Shown: piece after piece, positions 25,582-60,362 of the stretch
Position numbering within the stretch: the first letter of the stretch is position 1
Layout of the letters: the number at the start of each line of letters is the position of its first letter
Origin: a phage
Assembly (NCBI GenBank): GCA_014435945.1
Contig: GCA_014435945.1_4088.1
DNA length: 64,000 bases
Strand: one strand, 5' to 3'
Translations under genes and position numbers: made by a program
Notes under the pieces: model-generated
Databases searched by the model: none
What the model saw: the letters and a program-made list of their open reading frames with translations, nothing else
Told to the model about the DNA's origin: nothing

Positions 25582-25601
25582 CGGGACATAACACATCCTA
25601 G

Positions 25602-25610
25602 TGATATAAT
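25602..25610 (+). promoter_or_regulatory. extended -10 promoter element (TGATATAAT)
   Basis: TGnTATAAT; same 9-mer recurs at 36899, 40505, 52848 and 55908. Confidence 0.45.
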
Positions 25611-25887
25611 GTATATTGTAAAATGACAACGGACATTGAAAAATGGATAATGAGAACCTACTTCTCTTGAAAATGTAAAGGATAGATGAGCTTTACCGTT
25701 GTAGCGAACAGCAAAAGAAACCTGTTAGAGTACTGGCAATCAAACAAACACGAGATAAGACCACGAATCACGGCGACACGGCTGTATAAAGAACTCCAAT
25801 AAGCACACAGAGAGTTCCTAGATAGATGTATAAGGTTCGCACCTTACGAATTTGCTAAGGGAGTTCAAGGATTGTGGACGCGATTTT

Positions 25888-25916
25888 ACAAGAAAGTTGC
25901 GTCCAAAATTTGAGAA
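25888..25916 (+). repeat. direct repeat copy 1 (core CGTCCAAAATTTGAGAA)
   Basis: ACAAGAAAGTTGCGTCCAAAATTTGAGAA; 17-nt core identical to copy at 26053. Confidence 0.7.
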
Positions 25917-26040
25917 CAGGTACTACTTTGATCGAATAGAGTTTAGTACTGAGTGCTGTTGATGAAAAGACCAGCGACCGTTGCATATGACTGCGATAGA
26001 GAGAAACCGAGCAACCCGCTTTCGCTCTCTAAATTTTGGT

Positions 26041-26069
26041 ACAGGAAAGATCCGTCCAAAATTTGAGAA
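26041..26069 (+). repeat. direct repeat copy 2 (core CGTCCAAAATTTGAGAA)
   Basis: ACAGGAAAGATCCGTCCAAAATTTGAGAA; core identical to copy 1. Confidence 0.7.
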
Positions 26070-26108
26070 ATTCGCAATTCGATAATATCCGATGCCATCA
26101 TCGTCAAG

Positions 26109-26131
26109 AGAGACTTAATTGTCTCTTTTTT
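26109..26131 (+). terminator. intrinsic terminator (short stem)
   Basis: AGAGAC-ttaatt-GTCTCT followed by TTTTT. Confidence 0.45.
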
Positions 26132-26137
26132 ATTACC

Positions 26138-26161
26138 TTCATTCCCCTGCGGGGGGATGAA
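26138..26161 (+). other. stable GC-rich hairpin with UGCG loop
   Basis: TTCATTCCCC-tgcg-GGGGGATGAA (10 bp with G-U pairs); no following T-run. Confidence 0.5.
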
Positions 26162-26271
26162 ATAGTCCTCAACAAATCCCGTCAAGCTTTTAAAGTACAT
26201 TATCATTTTCAGAAGGAACTAGTTTACGAAGTAAACGTAGTGACTTCTTGAGTTACGAGAGAACGAAGTGA

Positions 26272-26700
26272 ATGAGTAACACAACGAAAATATCCAATAC
26301 ATCTGAATTAACACAAATGTTATTCAAAGAATATTTTGAGTATCAAATCAAAAGCGATCATAATTTGGTTCAGACCTATTTGAAGAGAATCAAAGATCCA
26401 TTAAGTTTAAACAAAGGAACTGAATTTTATAACAGTATTTTAGATTTTATTAATTTAGTTCATACAAACAGACCTATTGTAGTTTTCTTCTTTGATAAAT
26501 CAATTCCTGTAGAAGTTCCTGATAATGTATTTTTTGTTACAGAAACTGATTTAAGTAATCAAAGTACTGTAAGTAGATTAAGGAATTGCTTACTTATAAT
26601 TTGTGATTCTTCATTATATAACAATAGAGTACTATGGAATAGAAGTAAGAGAAATGCAGTTTCAGAAATGAATCCTGAAGTTACCTTTATTATTAACTAA
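26272..26700 (+). CDS. hypothetical protein
   Basis: 142-aa ORF, very AT-rich. Confidence 0.45.
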   Translation: MSNTTKISNTSELTQMLFKEYFEYQIKSDHNLVQTYLKRIKDPLSLNKGTEFYNSILDFINLVHTNRPIVVFFFDKSIPVEVPDNVFFVTETDLSNQSTVSRLRNCLLIICDSSLYNNRVLWNRSKRNAVSEMNPEVTFIIN

Positions 26701-32045: not shown

Positions 32046-32456
32046 ATGATTGAAATGGAAGGAACTCTGGTGTATGATCCAGATCGTGGCACTATGAAAA
32101 AGAAGAAGGACTTCTGGTTAGTACTGCAACTTCCATTACAGTTGGTTCGATACTACCAGTACTTCATCAGAACTGACTTACATATTGATATCAAAGACCC
32201 ACAATGGGGAGCACATGTCAGTATCGTTCGTGGTGAAGTGCCACCAAATCCAGAGTACTGGAAAAAGTACGATGGTATGAAAGTTAAGATTAAGTTCGAA
32301 CCTTTCATCGAAGAAGTAAAAGACAATAAGAAACCTGGGTCATTCTTTATCATAGAGTTTGAAGATGATTTCATTGCACAAATTCGTGATGAACTTGGTT
32401 TAGCATCTAAATATTTCAAATATCACATCACCATTGGTAGAACATACTACGATTAA
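32046..32456 (+). CDS. 2H-phosphoesterase-superfamily protein (LigT-like)
   Basis: Two H-x-[ST]-x motifs about 90 residues apart: GAHVSIVRGE and KYHITIGR. Confidence 0.5.
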   Translation: MIEMEGTLVYDPDRGTMKKKKDFWLVLQLPLQLVRYYQYFIRTDLHIDIKDPQWGAHVSIVRGEVPPNPEYWKKYDGMKVKIKFEPFIEEVKDNKKPGSFFIIEFEDDFIAQIRDELGLASKYFKYHITIGRTYYD

Positions 32457-33599: not shown

Positions 33600-34232
33600 A
33601 TGATATATAATGTTGGTATAAATGATGTACCAGGTGATTCTAAATCGGATAGTGATGGTTATTATATATATGTGAAATGGAAAAGTATGATTAAACGATG
33701 CTACTCAGTTGAATATCAAAAAATACATCATTCATATATTGGAACAACTGTATGTAATGAATGGCTTACATATTCAAATTTTAAAGATTGGTATCTAAAT
33801 AATTACATAGACGGGTATGTTTTAGATAAAGACTTGATATCGGGTGATTTACAAGTATACTCACCAGTGACATGTTCATTTGTACCACAAGAATTAAATT
33901 GTTCTATTCTTGAAAGTAATAGTGCTAAAACAAAACTACCATTGGGTGTGTCATATCAACAGAAAACTAAAAATATGATAAATGAACGTTCGAAACCATA
34001 TGATTCATATATAAAAATGTATGGTAAGTTGTATCGTCTTGGTAGTTATGAATGTCCTGAACTTGCACATAAAGAATGGCAAATCGCCAAGAAAAAATAT
34101 CTCGAAGAACTCATTGACAGATATAAAAATTCTGTTAAAATGGAAGTCATAGAAGGTATTCAGAAACGAATTGATATATTACATAATGATATAGTCAATA
34201 ACGGTGTTACAATCACAATCAATAAGATATAA
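33600..34232 (+). CDS. putative homing-endonuclease-associated DNA-binding protein
   Basis: WKSMIKRCYS ... YIGTTVCNEWLTYSNFKDW pattern recalled from phage proteins annotated HNH/AP2; tentative. Confidence 0.35.
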   Translation: MIYNVGINDVPGDSKSDSDGYYIYVKWKSMIKRCYSVEYQKIHHSYIGTTVCNEWLTYSNFKDWYLNNYIDGYVLDKDLISGDLQVYSPVTCSFVPQELNCSILESNSAKTKLPLGVSYQQKTKNMINERSKPYDSYIKMYGKLYRLGSYECPELAHKEWQIAKKKYLEELIDRYKNSVKMEVIEGIQKRIDILHNDIVNNGVTITINKI

Positions 34233-34244
34233 GGTAGGTAAATT

Positions 34245-34577
34245 ATGCTAGATTTAGTTATCCAAGGTAATGTTGATATTACTCCAGCAATCAATTACGC
34301 GATTCATGCAGAAGCAAATGCACTAACGAAGTTTAGTGATTCTTCAGTACTTTATATCGGTGTTCATGTGAAGAAAGAGCATAAGTCTCAATACTCTGTG
34401 ACTCTAACATCAGGTAGTAAATCAGTTACTGCCGATGCAGCAGATTTATACAAGGCGATTGCTGATTCATTTGAAAAAATGGAAACTGTATTCAGTAAAG
34501 ACAAAAGCATTAAATTGCACCGCCGAAACCATCCAGAACATCCAGTTCAAGAAGACTTGACTGACAACGAAGAGTAA
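34245..34577 (+). CDS. hypothetical protein
   Basis: 110-aa ORF. Confidence 0.5.
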   Translation: MLDLVIQGNVDITPAINYAIHAEANALTKFSDSSVLYIGVHVKKEHKSQYSVTLTSGSKSVTADAADLYKAIADSFEKMETVFSKDKSIKLHRRNHPEHPVQEDLTDNEE

Positions 34578-34588
34578 TATATAATAAA

Positions 34589-34620
34589 GGGACAGAGATA
34601 ATTCTGTCCCTTTTCTTTTT
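34589..34620 (+). terminator. intrinsic terminator
   Basis: GGGACAGA-gataat-TCTGTCCC followed by TTTTCTTTTT then GGAG. Confidence 0.75.
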
Positions 34621-34630
34621 GGAGTACATT

Positions 34631-34810
34631 ATGAATGCAGTACTGATATTTTTAATGTGTGTGGTATTTGGTGCTTTTGGTCTATTCGTAATTTTAGATA
34701 CTGAACCTAGTACTGAAGTAGGTACAACCATTACACTTAAACCTGGTGTTAAAATTAATGATACCTATTGCTACAATCCAAACATAAACCGTTATGAGAT
34801 TTGTTTATGA
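34631..34810 (+). CDS. small membrane protein (hypothetical)
   Basis: ATG 7 nt after GGAG; N-terminal TM helix. Confidence 0.4.
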   Translation: MNAVLIFLMCVVFGAFGLFVILDTEPSTEVGTTITLKPGVKINDTYCYNPNINRYEICL

Positions 34811-35214
34811 AAACATTCAATATTGTTCATATAATTGAACCGATTGCAGAACATATTAAAAACATAAGTAAGAACGATTCAGGTTTTTTCTTCAATTTAG
34901 ACAAACTTCATCGCTATACCAATGTATCTAGTTTTAATCGTGCTAAGAGACTTTATATCCGTATACACAACCTATGGTACAGTGACGATACGTTGATGAT
35001 AGATATTACTGTTGATGAAGACATAACATTAAGATACATTGACGATTTTAAATCAGATGATATTCGTTCTGGCTCATTACCAATTGATGCTTCATATGAA
35101 GAATATATGCAATATCAGTTCATTGATGACACATTTGGATTTGACTTTGATCTATATAATAGTATAATGAACGTATACCATATATACGAAAGGAATTTGA
35201 ATGGACATTCGTAA
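34801..35214 (+). CDS. hypothetical protein, tandem paralog 1
   Basis: C-terminus YMQYQFIDDTFGFDFDLYNSIMNVYHIYERNL resembles the next ORF. Confidence 0.45.
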   Translation: MFMKTFNIVHIIEPIAEHIKNISKNDSGFFFNLDKLHRYTNVSSFNRAKRLYIRIHNLWYSDDTLMIDITVDEDITLRYIDDFKSDDIRSGSLPIDASYEEYMQYQFIDDTFGFDFDLYNSIMNVYHIYERNLNGHS

Positions 35215-35623
35215 AATACCAAATTTCCACAGTACATTAATGTACTTTTCTGAACAAGAAATCAGTACTGAAAGACGTGGTTTAGTTACATATAATCAAC
35301 ATCGTGTTATGTACACTAATAATTTTCAGGGTACTGTACGAATAAAATTTCGTAATGCGTTAGAAGAGAATGATGAATTGTTAATTTTACTAAGAAAAAG
35401 TAAGATTGAATTGACATACGCAACTCACCATATTGAAAGTGAGTTGATGTGGCACACCCTATCAAAAAAAGAAGGTTCATTGCCAGTTGTTGATAATGGT
35501 CCTGAAACACTTGATCAGTACATGTTCATTGATGATACATTTAGTATTGACTATCCATCATTTCAGTGTATACTAGATATACATGCAAAATATTACGACC
35601 GTCTACGTGATAGATTAATTTAA
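35201..35623 (+). CDS. hypothetical protein, tandem paralog 2
   Basis: C-terminus LDQYMFIDDTFSIDYPSFQCILDIHAKYYDRL. Confidence 0.45.
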   Translation: MDIRKIPNFHSTLMYFSEQEISTERRGLVTYNQHRVMYTNNFQGTVRIKFRNALEENDELLILLRKSKIELTYATHHIESELMWHTLSKKEGSLPVVDNGPETLDQYMFIDDTFSIDYPSFQCILDIHAKYYDRLRDRLI

Positions 35624-35758: not shown

Positions 35759-36874
35759 ATGAAAAAGTATTTGGTTGGTGGCTACGTTCGTGACCGTTTA
35801 ATGGGCATCCGTGCAAAAGACAAAGATTATGTTATTGTTGGTGCTACCGAATCCGATATTAAGTACTTGCAAAGTATTGGATACAAGCAAGTAGGTAAGG
35901 ATTTCCCTGTATATCTAAGTCCAGAAGGTAATGAACACGCATTAGCCCGTACTGAGCGTAAAACTGGTACTGGATATGGTGGCTTCGAAGTGAATACAAA
36001 AGGTGTGACACTAGAACAAGATCTATATCGTCGTGATCTCACAATCAATAGTATTGCATATGATCCAGTACTCCAGATTCACATCGACCCTTATGGCGGG
36101 AAAGCTGATATCAAGAACAAAGTACTTCGTCATGTATCAGAACACTTTAAAGAAGATCCATTGCGTGTTCTACGTTTGGCCCGTTTCGCTACGCGTTACT
36201 CCGACTTTACAATCCATGATGATACTATGACAATGTGTAAAGATATGGTTAGTACTGGTGAACTAGACCATCTAGTCCCAGAACGTGTATTTGTTGAATT
36301 CGAAAAAGCACTTTCTGAAGAAAACCCTTCCAAGTTTATCAAAACTCTGGTACAATTTGGTTATTACGAAAAGGCATTTACTACAGTTCCAGTTACCAAG
36401 AAACGTCTGGAATTAATTGATGCTATCGCTGCAAATTGTACAGAAGAATATAAACCATATTTCTTATGGACAGTACTTCTTGAAAATGAAGAAGTAAATA
36501 ATGATTCAGTACTTAACGGTTCCATTAAGGTTCCAGTTAAGTACGTGAAGTTTAGTAATTACATCAAGCGTTTCCGTGAAGATATTAAAACCTTCCGTAA
36601 GAAGACCCCAGTTGAAATGGGGCAAATCTTACTGGATATGAATATCAAAAACAATGGTGGTGAAGATTTCCTTTACAAAGTACTGGAAAACTTCATTTTG
36701 AACAAAGAAATTGATTCTGAACTTGAAGATTTGATTATTAAAGTTTATGATCGTTATACTGATGTTGAATTACCTGATATTCAGCAGTTAGTGAAAGATG
36801 GTGAACTCCAAACATCGGAGATTCGTGATTTTGTTGCTGAATTGCGTATTGAAGCAATCAAGCAAATGTTCTAA
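35759..36874 (+). CDS. cca: tRNA nucleotidyltransferase (CCA-adding enzyme)
   Basis: Head-domain motifs GGYVRDRLMG, DxD, RRDLTINSIAYD, ERKTGTGYGGF. Confidence 0.85.
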   Translation: MKKYLVGGYVRDRLMGIRAKDKDYVIVGATESDIKYLQSIGYKQVGKDFPVYLSPEGNEHALARTERKTGTGYGGFEVNTKGVTLEQDLYRRDLTINSIAYDPVLQIHIDPYGGKADIKNKVLRHVSEHFKEDPLRVLRLARFATRYSDFTIHDDTMTMCKDMVSTGELDHLVPERVFVEFEKALSEENPSKFIKTLVQFGYYEKAFTTVPVTKKRLELIDAIAANCTEEYKPYFLWTVLLENEEVNNDSVLNGSIKVPVKYVKFSNYIKRFREDIKTFRKKTPVEMGQILLDMNIKNNGGEDFLYKVLENFILNKEIDSELEDLIIKVYDRYTDVELPDIQQLVKDGELQTSEIRDFVAELRIEAIKQMF

Positions 36875-36949: not shown

Positions 36950-37394
36950 ATGCGTTATAGCTGTGGTATAATATTTTATCGTGATGGTCAGATACTTATC
37001 GGGCATACAACACGGACAGAATCACTGGGACTTACCTAAAGGTAAAACTGAAGGTACAGAAACATTTAAAGAGGCTGCTGTACGTGAATGCTACGAAGAG
37101 ACAGGATATGAAATCGATGAAGATGATCTTCTGTTTCTTGGTGATGTATCGTATAGAAAGGGGAAACGTTTAGTTTTATTTTTCTATACAGCCAAAGATA
37201 AGCCTATACCAGAAGAGTTGGTGTGTAAAAGTACTTACACAAACAGATATGGTAGAAGTCACCCAGAATTGGATAAGTTCATGTACATTGATGTACTAGA
37301 TTGTCAAAAGTATTTGACTGAACGAATGTGTAACAGTATAATAAAGGCTGTTACAATGTTTCAACGAAATAAAGGGAAAAGAAATGAAAGTTAA
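36950..37394 (+). pseudogene. Nudix hydrolase with apparent +1 frameshift near codon 25
   Basis: Frame A (ATG 36950) encodes Nudix-like N-terminus GIIFYRDGQILIGHTTR then stops at 37037; frame B (+1) encodes LPKGKTEGTETFKEAAVRECYEETGY (perfect Nudix box) to 37394. Confidence 0.55.
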
Positions 37395-37632
37395 AATTTA
37401 TGGTCGCACTACTGGTTGTAAATTCTGCGACACTGCTAAAGCAGTATGTGAAAATAACAAATTTGATATGGAGTTTATCGATATTGTTACCGCTGGTATT
37501 GATGGTGCTAAACTATCTGAACTATGTGGTGAGCCAGTACGACAGGTTCCACAAATTTTCGTAAACGATGTTTACGTTCCAGGTGGCTGTACTGGTTTCG
37601 TTGAAGGTCTTAAAGAAGGTCGCTGGAATTAA
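37384..37632 (+). CDS. glutaredoxin/thioredoxin-like protein (NrdC-like)
   Basis: 82 aa; active-site CKFC near N-terminus; size and pattern as T4 NrdC/NrdH-type redoxins. Confidence 0.7.
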   Translation: MKVKIYGRTTGCKFCDTAKAVCENNKFDMEFIDIVTAGIDGAKLSELCGEPVRQVPQIFVNDVYVPGGCTGFVEGLKEGRWN

Positions 37633-38162: not shown

Positions 38163-38173
38163 AATATAAATTA

Positions 38174-38203
38174 AGGACTCTGATTACAGAGTCCTTTCTT
38201 TTC
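38174..38203 (+). terminator. intrinsic terminator
   Basis: AGGACTCTG-atta-CAGAGTCCT followed by TTCTTTTC then GGAG. Confidence 0.75.
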
Positions 38204-38213
38204 GGAGAATATA

Positions 38214-38690
38214 ATGATACATGAACACCTAGGTAATTTGTTTGAATTGTTCAACTCTGTTACTGATGATCAAACCGCGTTGCATATAATCGCTCATGGT
38301 TGTAATGCACAGGGTAAGATGGGTTCGGGTTTTGCAAAAGAACTAAGAAATCGTTACCCGATGGCATATGATGATTATAAAGCATATGAAAAGGAAATGG
38401 GATTTCTAAGAACAGGACAAATTTCATATTCTTCTATAAGTGATGATTTGCTTATCGCAAACTGCATTACCCAACAGTACTATGGTAATGACGGTTCTAA
38501 GTATGTAAGTTATGATGCAATCGATGATGTTTTCAAACAACTAAATTACTTATGTAACGTTGAACGCACTGTTCATGTACACTTCCCGAAAATTGGAGCC
38601 GATTTAGGCGGTGGTAACTGGAACGTTATCAAAGAAATCATTGACCACAGACTGGTTAATGCAGAAAAACACTTATACATTCTAAAATAA
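38214..38690 (+). CDS. macro-domain protein (ADP-ribose binding/processing)
   Basis: ALHIIAHGCNAQGKMGSGFA resembles the macro-domain motif [IV]xHxxNCQGxMGAGIA. Confidence 0.55.
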   Translation: MIHEHLGNLFELFNSVTDDQTALHIIAHGCNAQGKMGSGFAKELRNRYPMAYDDYKAYEKEMGFLRTGQISYSSISDDLLIANCITQQYYGNDGSKYVSYDAIDDVFKQLNYLCNVERTVHVHFPKIGADLGGGNWNVIKEIIDHRLVNAEKHLYILK

Positions 38691-39030: not shown

Positions 39031-39408
39031 ATGGCTGCTCAAAACGTTAAAGTTAAAACTATCCAAGCTATCGTAGTACTGAAAGATTCTACTCCATCAC
39101 CAAAAGAACTGGTTATGGCTGGTATGACAATGCTACATCAGTACAATCCAGAATCACCTAACTATGTACTGGAATACGAAGCGAAGCAGTTTAAAGAACA
39201 TTGGCAGTCATGGATTAAAGATAATGAAATGGAACAGGTTGTTTATGCTGCTGATGACATTTTCGAATTAGAACAAATCGAATATCTAGCAGGACAACAA
39301 TCTGTACCATTGAGTATCTTCGGTAATGGAGAAGAAGTTTTAGTACTGGGACCATTTACCGCTGATGCCATCATGCATTTACTAAGTAATTGTAAAAAAG
39401 TTGGCTAA
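39031..39408 (+). CDS. hypothetical protein
   Basis: ATG after AGAGG; 125 aa. Confidence 0.5.
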   Translation: MAAQNVKVKTIQAIVVLKDSTPSPKELVMAGMTMLHQYNPESPNYVLEYEAKQFKEHWQSWIKDNEMEQVVYAADDIFELEQIEYLAGQQSVPLSIFGNGEEVLVLGPFTADAIMHLLSNCKKVG

Positions 39409-57436: not shown

Positions 57437-58365
57437 TGAAACAACTACAAGAACTATATCAAAGAATTCTGGATCAAGGTGTCGAAAGCGTTGATCGTAC
57501 TGGTGTTGGCACTATCAAGCTAATCGGACAACAAATGCGTTTTGACCTAAAAGAAGGTTTCCCAGCAGTAACTACTAAACGTTTAGCTTGGAAAGCAATG
57601 ACTTCAGAATTGTTATGGTTTATTGAAGGTTCTCACGATGAGCGTCGTCTGTGTGAAATTTTACACGGGACACGTGATGTAGAAAAGAAAACAATTTGGA
57701 CAGACAACTACCTTAATCAAGGTGTAAGCCTTGGGTATTCTGATGGTGAGCTTGGCCCAGTTTATGGTAAACAATGGCGTGAATGGGAAGATTATAAATT
57801 CAGTTCCAGTACTGAAGAAATTCAAGAACTAAAAGATAAAGGGTATAAAGTTATTGATTATACTGGTTCACATGGTGTTATTATGCGTCGTGTAACTGAC
57901 CAGCTAAAACAAGTTATTGAAGGTATCAATACTGATCCATACGGTCGTCGTCACATTCTAAGTGCATGGAACGTTGGTGAGCTTGATGCTATGACTTTGC
58001 CACCCTGTCATAGCTTTGTGCAGTTTTGTGTTGTACAGGGTAAACTAAGTTGTATTCTTCATCAACGTAGTGCTGATCTATTCCTTGGTGTACCATTTAA
58101 TATTAGTAGTTACTCACTACTAACTCATATGATTGCACAAATTACAGGGTTAGATGTTGGTGAATTTATTTGGAATGGTGGTGACTGCCATATCTATCAA
58201 AACCATATTGAACAAGTAAAAGAGCAACTCCAACGTGAACCACGTACATTACCAGAATTATGGCTAGATCCTACTATTACTGATATTGAAGATTTCACTA
58301 TGGATTCTTTCAAATTAGTTAATTACGATCCAATGCCAACAATCAAAGCACCAATGGCTGTATAA
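57436..58365 (+). CDS. thyA: thymidylate synthase (ThyA type)
   Basis: DRTGVGT, GPVYGKQWR, SAWNVGELD, catalytic LPPCH, HQRSADLFLGVPFNI; ~30-aa insertion relative to E. coli ThyA. Confidence 0.9.
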   Translation: MKQLQELYQRILDQGVESVDRTGVGTIKLIGQQMRFDLKEGFPAVTTKRLAWKAMTSELLWFIEGSHDERRLCEILHGTRDVEKKTIWTDNYLNQGVSLGYSDGELGPVYGKQWREWEDYKFSSSTEEIQELKDKGYKVIDYTGSHGVIMRRVTDQLKQVIEGINTDPYGRRHILSAWNVGELDAMTLPPCHSFVQFCVVQGKLSCILHQRSADLFLGVPFNISSYSLLTHMIAQITGLDVGEFIWNGGDCHIYQNHIEQVKEQLQREPRTLPELWLDPTITDIEDFTMDSFKLVNYDPMPTIKAPMAV

Positions 58366-58372
58366 AAGAAAA

Positions 58373-58396
58373 GGGAGACTTATGTCTCCCTTTTTT
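58373..58396. terminator. bidirectional intrinsic terminator between convergent modules
   Basis: GGGAGAC-ttat-GTCTCCC flanked by A-run upstream and T6 downstream. Confidence 0.75.
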
Positions 58397-58397
58397 A

Positions 58398-60362
58398 TTA
58401 TCTTAATGTAACCAGTGTACGTCCGGCAAATCTCACATCAGGAGTTGCAGGGATACTGAACACTACGCTTGTTCCATTGAATGTAACACTATCAACTTCA
58501 ACACGAGTGTAAACACCAGTACTTACGAGTTCTTGAATTTCAGCAGTTACTATGTTACTAGCAGTTACTGTTAATGTGTAATATGAGCCGTTTAAAACCC
58601 ACGCTGACGCAGTAAACGGGTCAGTACGTACAGAACCAGAACCAATTGGAACCCATTGTCCTTGGACCTTCTGCATCGATGTACGTTCGGTATTTGAGTA
58701 TGCAATCATACCATCAACACCAACTGAGTTATCAATTGTAGCCAGTACTGGTAATTGAATACCATATCGGTTGAAACGAGTACGAATAACACCGTTATCA
58801 TATATACTTACATCAGCATAACTTCCCATAGTGAAACGTAAGTCTGCACCAAGTAGTTTTATATCACTTTGGTTTGTAGTACTTTCTAATGTGAATACAC
58901 CATTCTCTAGTAAGTTTATGTTTTTGAATTTGTTATTAGTTCCATTGAAATTAGTATTTGCATTATAAGTACTAACACCATTAACTGTAATAGTGTCACC
59001 AGTAGTGTCGCCTAGTGTTGTATTACCTTTAACAACTAAATTCCCGCTGGCAGTGATGTTACCTGCGTTTAAATCACCAGTTAGTGATGTTGATCCATCT
59101 ACAATAATATTTCCATGAAAATGTGATTCACCATTTTTAAATTCAACTTGAACTTTATTCATTGAACTTAAAGAAATAATATTACTACTTGCACTTATCC
59201 CTACGTTTGTGTTTGATGCATTATCAAAACGTATTACTGGCGTAGCTGCTGGTGTAGCGGTAGTTTGGAATAATGTTAATGTTCCATTATTAATTCTAAC
59301 ACGCTCAGTTCCGGCTGTTGTAAAACCAATTGCGTCATCGGATGGATGAAATATACCAGTATTAGCATCGGACCACTTAGTTGGGTCATTACCTGGGTTA
59401 TTCGTTGGGTCAAACGGATTATTATTAAATGTCAATGCTGGTGCTGCTGCACTGCCATACACCACCCCAAAACGCCCAGAGCCGTCTGTTCCATCATTAT
59501 ACATGGAATCGCCAGTTCTACGTAAACACTCAATCACAACGTTATCTATGGATGTTTGAACGGTCCCTGCGTTTGTTCTAAATTGGCGATGATTTGCAAT
59601 CATTACAGTATTGTCATATAATACTGAAGCAGCGGAAATGCTTGTTCTTGACTGACGAAGACGTATATTCTTATCTTCAGTTATAATAATCCAATCACCA
59701 TCTGAAAGTGCAGTTTGGTTCATTGGAACACCAGATGCAAATGGTTTGGTCAAGTCAGTATCTGTTGCTAAATTTTCAAGGCCATCATGTCCAGTACTGG
59801 GAATAGATGCAGTAATAATTCTAGCAAAAGCGTATGTTACTAGTTTAGCACCAGATATATTTGGATTAGAGTCAACATAATATAAAATTTCAATCCAATT
59901 ACCTTGTCCAGTTGGATTTGTAGGTGTAAATGTAACAGGACTTGTTTGTGGATTATTTGCTTCATAATGTGCTTGTGCGGCATCCATTATACCACGAACG
60001 ACATAATAATCACCATTAAGCGATGGTGATGGTGCTGGTAGTGGAGTTTGTGCTAAAGGTGGATCGATATCATCTGGGATGGGATTATATGTACCAACAA
60101 ATTGTAAACCACTAGTTACTGAATCTGGTAATTGGGAAGTAAGAAGTTTACCGTTTGCATCTAGGTTTGCAAAACGTCGATATGCCATTGAACCATCTTC
60201 AAAGTCTAGTACACCTTCAAATGCTTTCCATCCTTTATTGTATCTAATCATCCCTGATCTAACCACATCAGCGGTTTCTTTAGTCGGTGCTTTAGGTAAT
60301 TCTAGAAATGCCTGACTATCTATAATTACACCACCATCACCTCTAATTCGATTTATACTCAT
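58398..60362 (-). CDS. tail fiber / receptor-binding protein
   Basis: 654 aa, Gly/Thr/Asn/Ser-rich with short beta-repeat character; convergent with + strand genes. Confidence 0.55.
   Translation of the reverse strand: MSINRIRGDGGVIIDSQAFLELPKAPTKETADVVRSGMIRYNKGWKAFEGVLDFEDGSMAYRRFANLDANGKLLTSQLPDSVTSGLQFVGTYNPIPDDIDPPLAQTPLPAPSPSLNGDYYVVRGIMDAAQAHYEANNPQTSPVTFTPTNPTGQGNWIEILYYVDSNPNISGAKLVTYAFARIITASIPSTGHDGLENLATDTDLTKPFASGVPMNQTALSDGDWIIITEDKNIRLRQSRTSISAASVLYDNTVMIANHRQFRTNAGTVQTSIDNVVIECLRRTGDSMYNDGTDGSGRFGVVYGSAAAPALTFNNNPFDPTNNPGNDPTKWSDANTGIFHPSDDAIGFTTAGTERVRINNGTLTLFQTTATPAATPVIRFDNASNTNVGISASSNIISLSSMNKVQVEFKNGESHFHGNIIVDGSTSLTGDLNAGNITASGNLVVKGNTTLGDTTGDTITVNGVSTYNANTNFNGTNNKFKNINLLENGVFTLESTTNQSDIKLLGADLRFTMGSYADVSIYDNGVIRTRFNRYGIQLPVLATIDNSVGVDGMIAYSNTERTSMQKVQGQWVPIGSGSVRTDPFTASAWVLNGSYYTLTVTASNIVTAEIQELVSTGVYTRVEVDSVTFNGTSVVFSIPATPDVRFAGRTLVTLR

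Follow-up and report, generated by a model that had tools for sequence, protein, structure and literature searches.

A compact class II CCA-type tRNA nucleotidyltransferase encoded by a 121Q/PBECO4-type jumbo phage

Jumbo phages are already known to encode tRNA nucleotidyltransferases: gp031 of phage RaK2 was described as a putative CCA-adding enzyme that would mature the tRNAs encoded by the phage itself, with Pnk, RNA ligase and Pth2 listed alongside (PMC3622015, 2013), and a 2021 survey of jumbo phages placed the CCA enzyme among the RNA-repair nucleotidyltransferases (PMC7824862). Many GenBank records of the 121Q/PBECO4 group annotate the gene as tRNA nucleotidyltransferase. In E. coli, the tRNA genes all encode CCA, and the cca gene is dispensable, with a viable knockout (PMC6468291). 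Some tRNAs of phage T4, whose genes lack CCA, are matured by the host enzyme, according to Deutscher et al. (1974) as cited in PMC6468291.

This report concerns the tRNA nucleotidyltransferase gene of a 64-kb stretch of phage DNA, which was analysed over its whole length and is called the window below. Both the gene and its two proposed roles have been published in the RaK2 paper and the 2021 survey, making this a known gene in a known lineage. Added here are the finding that the missing tRNAs are a window artefact, together with 40-50% of the relatives' tRNA genes lacking CCA, a substrate that host tRNA genes do not offer; an apparently decayed HD domain in a phage enzyme that seems to derive from proteobacterial Cca; and the placement of the gene within a conserved block of genes for processing RNA ends and ADP-ribose.

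The phage lineage and the enzyme

By megablast, the window falls in the 121Q/PBECO4 (Asteriusvirus-type) E. coli jumbo myophages, with genomes of 350-385 kb, the closest records being Turkey3, vB_Ec-M-J, fEgEco12, BF17, CMSTMSU and WPEC3. Three stretches were compared with Turkey3, the closest relative; identity is 98.6-99.5% for the flanks and 94.5% for the 33-40 kb segment. Turkey3 is collinear with the window between roughly 86.1 and 150.3 kb of its genome, which is 361 kb long and has the CCA gene at 122.1 kb. The window has a GC content of 36% and by these matches represents roughly a sixth of a jumbo myophage genome of ~360 kb, in the 121Q/PBECO4/RaK2 lineage. An extra HNH endonuclease gene lies in the window at 33600-34232, two genes upstream of a RaiA-like gene.

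The gene (35759..36874, plus strand) starts with ATG and encodes a protein of 371 aa, which is a class II CCA-type nucleotidyltransferase. The protein matches the Pfam head family PF01743 (PolyA_pol, 5.5e-19), PF12627 (PolyA_pol_RNAbd, 3.1e-10, aa 149-207) and, over its full length, PHROG 2244 'tRNA nucleotidyltransferase' (1.9e-117). Its top NCBIfam model is the E. coli-type CCA enzyme PRK10885 (2.7e-84), which outscores the poly(A) polymerase models at 283 bits versus 92 and 51. Identity as bacterial poly(A) polymerase I (PcnB) was rejected on the same searches (TIGR01942, 91.6 bits against a cutoff of 305.65; PRK11623, 51 against 702). These matches are much too strong to have arisen by chance and agree with the gene call of the preliminary description, and the two motifs that it quoted, GGYVRDR (aa 7-13) and RRDLTIN (aa 91-97), are both in the 371-aa reading frame. 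At least 471 IMG/VR contigs encode relatives of the enzyme.

The catalytic head is strongly conserved. Motif A, GGYVRD (aa 7-12), and the catalytic carboxylates D21-x-D23 are encoded at 35777..35827 (plus strand), with G7, G8, R11, D12, D21 and D23 invariant in 36 phage homologues. When E. coli Cca and other cellular enzymes are aligned, G7, G8, R11, D12 and D23 remain invariant and position 21 is D or E, the only exception to invariance of the catalytic motifs across phage and cellular enzymes; the protein thus has the Pol-beta head of class II enzymes, with motif A GGxVRD and the DxD carboxylates. Between motifs A and B lies the flexible-loop region (E59..ALARTERKTGTGYGGF76; 35933..35986, plus strand), which is nearly invariant among homologues and colinear by BLASTP and homologue alignment with 'ALARTERKSGSGYTGF' of E. 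coli Cca; the loop ALARTERKTGTGYGGF aligns without gaps to the loop region of that enzyme. The flexible loop of CCA enzymes is needed for addition of the terminal A, and it is reportedly deleted in CC-only enzymes. Motif B, RRDLTIN (aa 91-97), is encoded at 36029..36049 (plus strand), with R91, R92, D93, T95 and N97 invariant. Motif D, EDPLRVLRLARF (aa 132-143; 36152..36187, plus strand), is the protein template by which CTP and ATP are chosen, and its residues E132, D133, P134, R136, R139, R142 and F143 do not vary among phage and cellular homologues. Both elements of the protein template for CTP/ATP selection, RRD of motif B and EDxxR...R of motif D, are therefore present, and aa 1-210 share 52% identity with E. 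coli K-12 Cca (BLASTP).

An AlphaFold2 model built from an input alignment of 36 sequences has a pLDDT of 93.2 and a pTM of 0.85. Foldseek returned the T. maritima CCA enzyme 3h38 as the top match (E 1.8e-16, TMq 0.73), along with its tRNA complex 5hc9, the A-adding enzymes 4wc2 and 1vfg, and E. coli PAP (3aql). The model superposes at full length on class II CCA enzymes over about 390-400 columns, and E. coli poly(A) polymerase is a poorer structural match than these. By the PF12627 match and the model, the phage protein has the helical neck, body and tail through which the top half of tRNA is bound. From sequence and model together, we conclude that the 371-aa protein is most probably a CCA-type enzyme complete with head, neck, body and tail; we infer its exact product specificity, because the C-terminal half has diverged past sequence recognition.

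That half (aa 205-371; 36371..36871, plus strand) includes the phage-family motif MNIKNNGGEDFLYKV and is colinear with the HD half of E. coli Cca. BLASTP against E. coli Cca finds zero similarity past aa 210, that is, in the C-terminal ~165 aa; the PRK10885 match ends at position 204 of 409, with its 283 bits below the cutoff of 451; and the Pfam HD domain (PF01966) has no match in the phage enzyme. In the multiple alignment, colinearity with Cca extends to the terminal IRxxVxxxRIxAIK helix, and the structure search still matches the C-terminal half of the model to class II body and tail domains. Among phage homologues, conservation is at least 90% at positions N298, G300, G301, E302 and D331. 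The ligands of the HD metal-dependent phosphohydrolase (H...HD...D) of NF008137-type Cca are missing from the phage enzyme: 'HPEIDTGIH' is deleted, 'LCHDLGK' is replaced by 'LLENEEV', and 'EFHDLIH' by 'RFREDIK'. Identity as a full E. coli-type multifunctional Cca was rejected, the HD domain being absent by Pfam, NCBIfam cutoff and alignment. Because the ligands are deleted or substituted, PF01966 is not matched and the score is below the cutoff, 2',3'-cyclic phosphodiesterase and phosphatase are predicted to be absent, and the phage enzyme is predicted to be without E. coli-type phosphohydrolase activity. On this evidence the enzyme would be a trimmed descendant of a proteobacterial Cca with a dead HD domain.

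tRNA genes and the need for CCA addition

ARAGORN detected no tRNA gene over positions 1-64000, and Rfam gave no tRNA at the gathering score and no tRNA-like match at E<=1 over all 64 kb. The 25.0-27.0 kb island was scanned separately and gave no match. The preliminary description had recognised no tRNA gene in the window and no convincing cloverleaf in the intergenic regions that it inspected, the 25.6-26.3 kb island among them, and this was borne out; a hidden tRNA or tRNA-like element was rejected on the ARAGORN, Rfam and island scans. The sole sub-threshold Rfam match in the window is an sraA-like hairpin (58313-58458, both strands) between convergent genes, most simply a bidirectional terminator.

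The tRNA complement of the phage group was read in the relatives Turkey3, 121Q and RaK2. Whole-genome ARAGORN of Turkey3 detected seven tRNAs (Ser-UGA, Ser-GCU, Ser-ACU, Met/Ile-CAU, Asn-GUU and two Thr-UGU), all within one 4.5-kb cluster at 292.7-297.2 kb, about 170 kb from the CCA gene. All seven score 49.9-72.2 bits with RF00005 against a gathering score of 29, and Rfam also reports an eighth, weakly scoring tRNA, the counterpart of Leu-UAA in 121Q. The cluster is conserved throughout the phage group. Across 18 related jumbo-phage loci taken from IMG/VR, no tRNA lies closer than 10 kb to the CCA gene; some distant phages have a homologue of it inside tRNA arrays. With a single 4.5-kb cluster in 361 kb, about four-fifths of random 64-kb windows would be expected to contain no tRNA. 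Since all Turkey3 tRNAs are in that one cluster, absence from the window is uninformative: a CCA gene without a tRNA in 64 kb appears to be the normal arrangement for this lineage, and the apparent oddity of an enzyme without substrate is a window-size effect only.

Reading of the 3' ends showed that an encoded CCA is missing from three of seven tRNA genes in Turkey3 (Ser-ACU and both Thr-UGU; the other four encode CCA), three of seven in 121Q (Gly-UCC, Ser-ACU and Thr-UGU) and four of eight in RaK2 (Arg, Ser-GCU, Asn and Thr). C-AAA follows the discriminator base in the CCA-less genes of Turkey3 and 121Q, and the RaK2 trailers vary. The two Thr genes of Turkey3 score near the top with RF00005, at 72.2 and 67.1 bits, and two of the three CCA-less Turkey3 genes are separated by only 7-8 nt from the tRNA that follows (Met after Ser-ACU, and the second Thr after the first). 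These closely spaced pairs resemble the dimeric tRNA precursors of T4.

The phage tRNAs from these genes need CCA addition, since their genes do not supply it. Codon use in the window includes ACA as 37% of Thr codons and AGT as 33% of Ser codons, and these are codons read by the CCA-less tRNAs, which are thus in heavy use; the enzyme thereby has a concrete, phage-encoded substrate. The suggestion in the preliminary description that the enzyme services phage tRNAs encoded elsewhere thus gains direct sequence support, with 7-8 tRNA genes about 170 kb away in relatives and three of seven or four of eight of them without CCA. T4 copes with the host enzyme despite its CCA-less tRNAs, and so the need alone is insufficient to explain why this phage carries its own copy.

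Gene neighbourhood and proposed roles

The gene lies in a set of genes with conserved order. In 18 related loci, where these are long enough, the order is 2H, LysM-lysozyme, CCA, Nudix, glutaredoxin, an unknown gene, Macro, an unknown gene, PTH2-like, a gene matching a head-tail adaptor PHROG, and dNMP kinase. The small 2H phosphoesterase gene (32046..32456, plus strand), of the 'Swiss Army Knife' RNA-repair family, lies 3.3 kb upstream of the CCA gene; its product scores 23.8 bits with Pfam 2H-SAK, a family that all ten orthologues scanned also match (best 1.4e-8), and has two invariant HxS/HxT motifs, H57-V-S59 and H127-I-T129. The gene is syntenic in 16 of the 18 loci, the other two being truncated upstream of the CCA gene. 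Directly downstream of the CCA gene is a Nudix hydrolase gene (36981..37394, plus strand; Pfam NUDIX 9.6e-12), found at +1.2 or +1.3 kb in 18 of 18 loci, followed by a glutaredoxin gene (37384..37632, plus strand; Pfam Glutaredoxin 9.8e-9), found at +1.6 kb in 18 of 18. The Macro-domain protein (38214..38690, plus strand; syntenic in 18 of 18) gives a sub-cutoff match to Pfam Macro in its window copy (5.2e-4), and six of ten orthologues match the family (best 2.2e-6). A divergent candidate PTH2-like peptidyl-tRNA hydrolase (39031..39408, plus strand; syntenic in 17 of 18) is assigned via orthologues: the window copy has no Pfam match, three of nine orthologues match PF01981 PTH2 (best 5.6e-7), and Turkey3 annotates its orthologue as peptidyl-tRNA hydrolase. 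Sequence-only PDB searches with the 39031-39408 and 32046-32456 products returned nothing, and their families were assigned through the orthologue scans.

Terminator-like hairpins are found at 34586-34613 and 38173-38196, and the CCA-Nudix interval contains no terminator-like site. The Nudix gene is probably co-transcribed with the CCA gene, and the position of the hairpins suggests that CCA, Nudix and glutaredoxin share one transcript. A defined promoter for the CCA gene was rejected, sigma-70-like matches numbering 58 against 52.5 +/- 6.4 in shuffled sequence.

A search for RNA ligase or polynucleotide kinase genes nearby, as proposed in the preliminary description, found none in the window; relatives encode both, some 50 kb upstream of their CCA gene. 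Turkey3 encodes a T4-type Rnl1 (Pfam RNA_lig_T4_1 and T4_Rnl1_C) and a Pnkp (AAA_33 and HAD_PNKP, 1.7e-43) at 70.3-73.2 kb, about 15 kb before the start of the window. With these two proteins as queries, tblastn against the window found nothing better than E 0.9, and an RNA ligase or PNK in the window was rejected on this result. The T4-type arrangement for anticodon-loop repair, with Pnkp and Rnl1 alongside the CCA gene, is thus not found in the window. Mending host tRNAs that anticodon nucleases or retrons have cut, a role also raised in the preliminary description, goes beyond what a CCA enzyme alone can do, as anticodon-loop breaks need Pnkp and RNA ligase. A broader role in tRNA 3'-end repair is plausible from the conserved 2H, Nudix, Macro and PTH2-like neighbours.

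We consider it reasonably probable that the product of the gene is a class II CCA-adding enzyme, compact and with no functional HD domain, that serves mainly to finish the CCA-less tRNAs of a 121Q/PBECO4-type jumbo phage. As the motifs and modelled fold suggest, the Pol-beta head would use D21 and D23 with two metal ions, the EDxxR template of motif D would pick CTP, CTP and then ATP without a nucleic-acid template, and the helical body and tail would hold the tRNA such that addition ends after three nucleotides. The main job would be to provide the 3' CCA of phage tRNAs in which it is not encoded (in relatives Thr-UGU, Ser-ACU, Gly-UCC or others), which would decode A/T-rich codons heavily used by the phage and whose genes would sit in another part of the ~360-kb genome. 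As a second job, the enzyme may keep tRNA 3' ends intact during infection, making the phage independent of the dispensable host Cca. With the E. coli-type phosphohydrolase ('repair') half apparently decayed, end-healing would need separate proteins, such as the nearby 2H protein or the distant Pnkp.

The conserved RNA-repair-type neighbours fit a role in counter-defence at least as well as one in maturation. The enzyme might mainly rebuild the 3' ends of host and phage tRNAs trimmed or blocked by host immunity or toxins, acting with the 2H, Nudix, Macro and PTH2-like proteins and the distant Pnkp and Rnl1 as a jumbo-phage RNA-repair and ribosome-rescue kit. We regard this as unlikely overall, if well short of negligible. 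The neighbour set overlaps the RNA-repair and ribosome-rescue kit of the 2021 survey, which itself counts the CCA enzyme as a repair nucleotidyltransferase, so that a repair role keeps some plausibility (PMC7824862). The block from 2H through lysozyme, CCA, Nudix, glutaredoxin and Macro to PTH2-like is kept in the 18 related loci where these are long enough, with its families backed by orthologues; however, related jumbo-phage genomes are collinear throughout, and synteny, which may be inherited rather than functional, is therefore weak evidence of function. Rnl1 and Pnkp are encoded by relatives, but lie ~50 kb from the CCA gene and outside the window, and among 62 more distant phage loci an Rnl1 homologue is found within 10 kb of the CCA gene in six and a 2H homologue in four, raw counts that are weak evidence. 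The loss of the HD 'repair' domain and the inability of a CCA enzyme to mend anticodon-loop cuts also argue against repair as the main role. In a narrower and quite doubtful version, the block of 2H, CCA, Nudix, glutaredoxin, Macro and PTH2-like genes would be a dedicated tRNA acceptor-end repair and ribosome-rescue module, in which the 'repair' of Cca is split into separate proteins (HD lost, 2H recruited) that undo defence chemistry at the tRNA 3' end, separately from the Pnkp/Rnl1 anticodon-loop pathway. The chemistry envisaged comprises trimming, blocking by cyclic phosphate or pyrophosphate, addition of extra nucleotides, and ADP-ribosylation. Should the block counter defences aimed at tRNA 3' ends, it would be a useful addition to phage counter-defence biology.

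It is very unlikely that a remodelled C-terminal half has altered the specificity, so that the enzyme would tail RNA with poly(A) or poly(C) or, as a partial adder, would add only CC or only A. The catalytic core is common to class II CCA enzymes and bacterial poly(A) polymerases, and the C-terminal half of E. coli Cca reportedly helps restrict addition to three nucleotides, with C-terminal swaps said to alter product length. The C-terminal 165 aa without sequence similarity to E. coli Cca, and the Foldseek matches to A-adding enzymes and E. coli PAP, are compatible with such a change. However, the top structural matches are full CCA enzymes, the pcnB models score far below Cca, the loop that CC-only enzymes lack is intact, and the C-terminal half is colinear with Cca as far as its terminal helix, all of which favours CCA addition.

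Comparison with known systems

The nearest counterparts are the Asteriusvirus/Alcyoneusvirus-type orthologues of 121Q ('539: tRNA nucleotidyltransferase'), PBECO4, RaK2 (gp031), GAP32, Erwinia pEa_SNUABM_50, Salmonella PHA46 and Xanthomonas XaC1, which are full-length proteins of 367-376 aa with 56-98% identity and the same domain layout. The same neighbourhood as in the window is found in the related jumbo-phage loci (L013-L030). The window copy differs from the jumbo-phage orthologues by a few percent of sequence, with no material difference, and the window has the extra HNH gene.

Among cellular enzymes, E. coli Cca (NF008137) has the catalytic motifs and flexible loop in common with the phage protein and a colinear C-terminal half, whereas the phage protein is 41 aa shorter and has its HD metal ligands deleted or substituted. 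The HD-less bacterial class II enzymes (~360 aa; NF009811/PRK13296-type; P0084 and P0090) are of the same size class and have the same head and neck; P0090 has a degenerate HD region, 'FAVLFYGL', at the position of 'FATLCHDLGK' in E. coli. The C-terminal halves of these enzymes are not close to that of the phage family, which has its own NNGGE[ED]FLYK motif and scores below the cutoffs of those families. The T. maritima CCA enzyme (PDB 3h37/3h38, and 5hc9 with tRNA) is both the top whole-chain structural match and the top PDB sequence match (1.2e-21), with only 23% identity, and the corresponding activity of the phage enzyme is predicted.

The locus resembles T4 in the closely spaced tRNA genes, some without CCA, and in the T4-type Rnl1 and Pnkp of jumbo relatives. 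It differs from T4-type repair in that Rnl1 and Pnkp are encoded outside the window, at a distance from the CCA gene, and from T4 in that T4 relies on the host CCA enzyme, as cited in PMC6468291, whereas the jumbo lineage carries its own.

RNA-repair-family and probably mobile genes upstream of the CCA gene

The CCA gene is accompanied, in synteny throughout the lineage, by a plus-strand gene (32046-32456) for a 2H phosphoesterase. The enzyme, very small at 136 aa, belongs to the 'Swiss Army Knife' RNA-repair family and carries invariant HxS and HxT motifs. This protein is a candidate supplier of cyclic-phosphodiesterase activity and could replace that lost with the dead HD domain of the CCA enzyme. 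An HNH homing-endonuclease gene (33600-34232, plus strand; PHROG 953, 3.6e-68) follows, flanked by the lysozyme gene and a RaiA-like gene. Most close relatives lack this HNH gene, which accounts for their 89% query coverage, and it looks like a mobile insertion.

The RaiA-like gene (34245-34577, plus strand) encodes a phage homologue of S30AE (RaiA/HPF) ribosome hibernation proteins (Pfam, 2.3e-8), with a strong terminator-like hairpin 3' of it at 34586-34613. Among the related jumbo-phage loci examined, this homologue was restricted to the 121Q locus (L013) and, as a weak match, one other (L025). Two overlapping tandem paralogues (34801-35214 and 35201-35623, plus strand), both assigned to PHROG 20693, adjoin the CCA gene on its upstream side, and the pair is shared with the 121Q locus only, among the same loci.

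Non-coding stretches

Rfam and tRNA searches of the gene-poor island at 25600-26300 (~0.7 kb) returned no match, in agreement with the preliminary description, which had recognised no tRNA there. The island contains only short ORFs, among them one of 87 aa on the minus strand (25943-26206). At 58313-58458, where the thymidylate synthase gene and its neighbour converge, the Rfam sraA model scored 41 and 35.6 bits on the two strands, below its gathering score of 56; the simplest reading of this element is a bidirectional terminator formed by a long palindrome.

tRNA and repair genes elsewhere in Turkey3 and 121Q

Outside the window, a run of ~17 minus-strand paralogues occupies 337-357 kb of Turkey3 (pieces L007:41899-49901 and L008:1-12501). 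Most are labelled 'E3 ubiquitin-protein ligase HERC1', and others 'NS1A-binding protein', 'regulator of chromosome condensation' and, once, hypothetical; the run encodes RCC1-like repeat proteins, which in these phages form a large family of paralogues.

A tRNA-Ser with anticodon ACU is conserved in Turkey3 (295585-295676; L007:386-477) and 121Q (piece L011:3540-3631). Its gene encodes no CCA, and the next tRNA starts 7 nt downstream. The wobble position is an unmodified-looking A, which is uncommon in bacteria. The codon read would be AGU, the Ser codon most used in the window.

The preliminary description had also proposed a search for RNA ligase and PNK genes near the CCA gene. Such genes are present in Turkey3, but ~15 kb before the window start, at 70.3-73.2 kb (piece L003:20527-23424), where 0.8 kb and three short ORFs separate them. 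They encode a T4-type RNA ligase 1 and Pnkp, an anticodon-loop repair pair.
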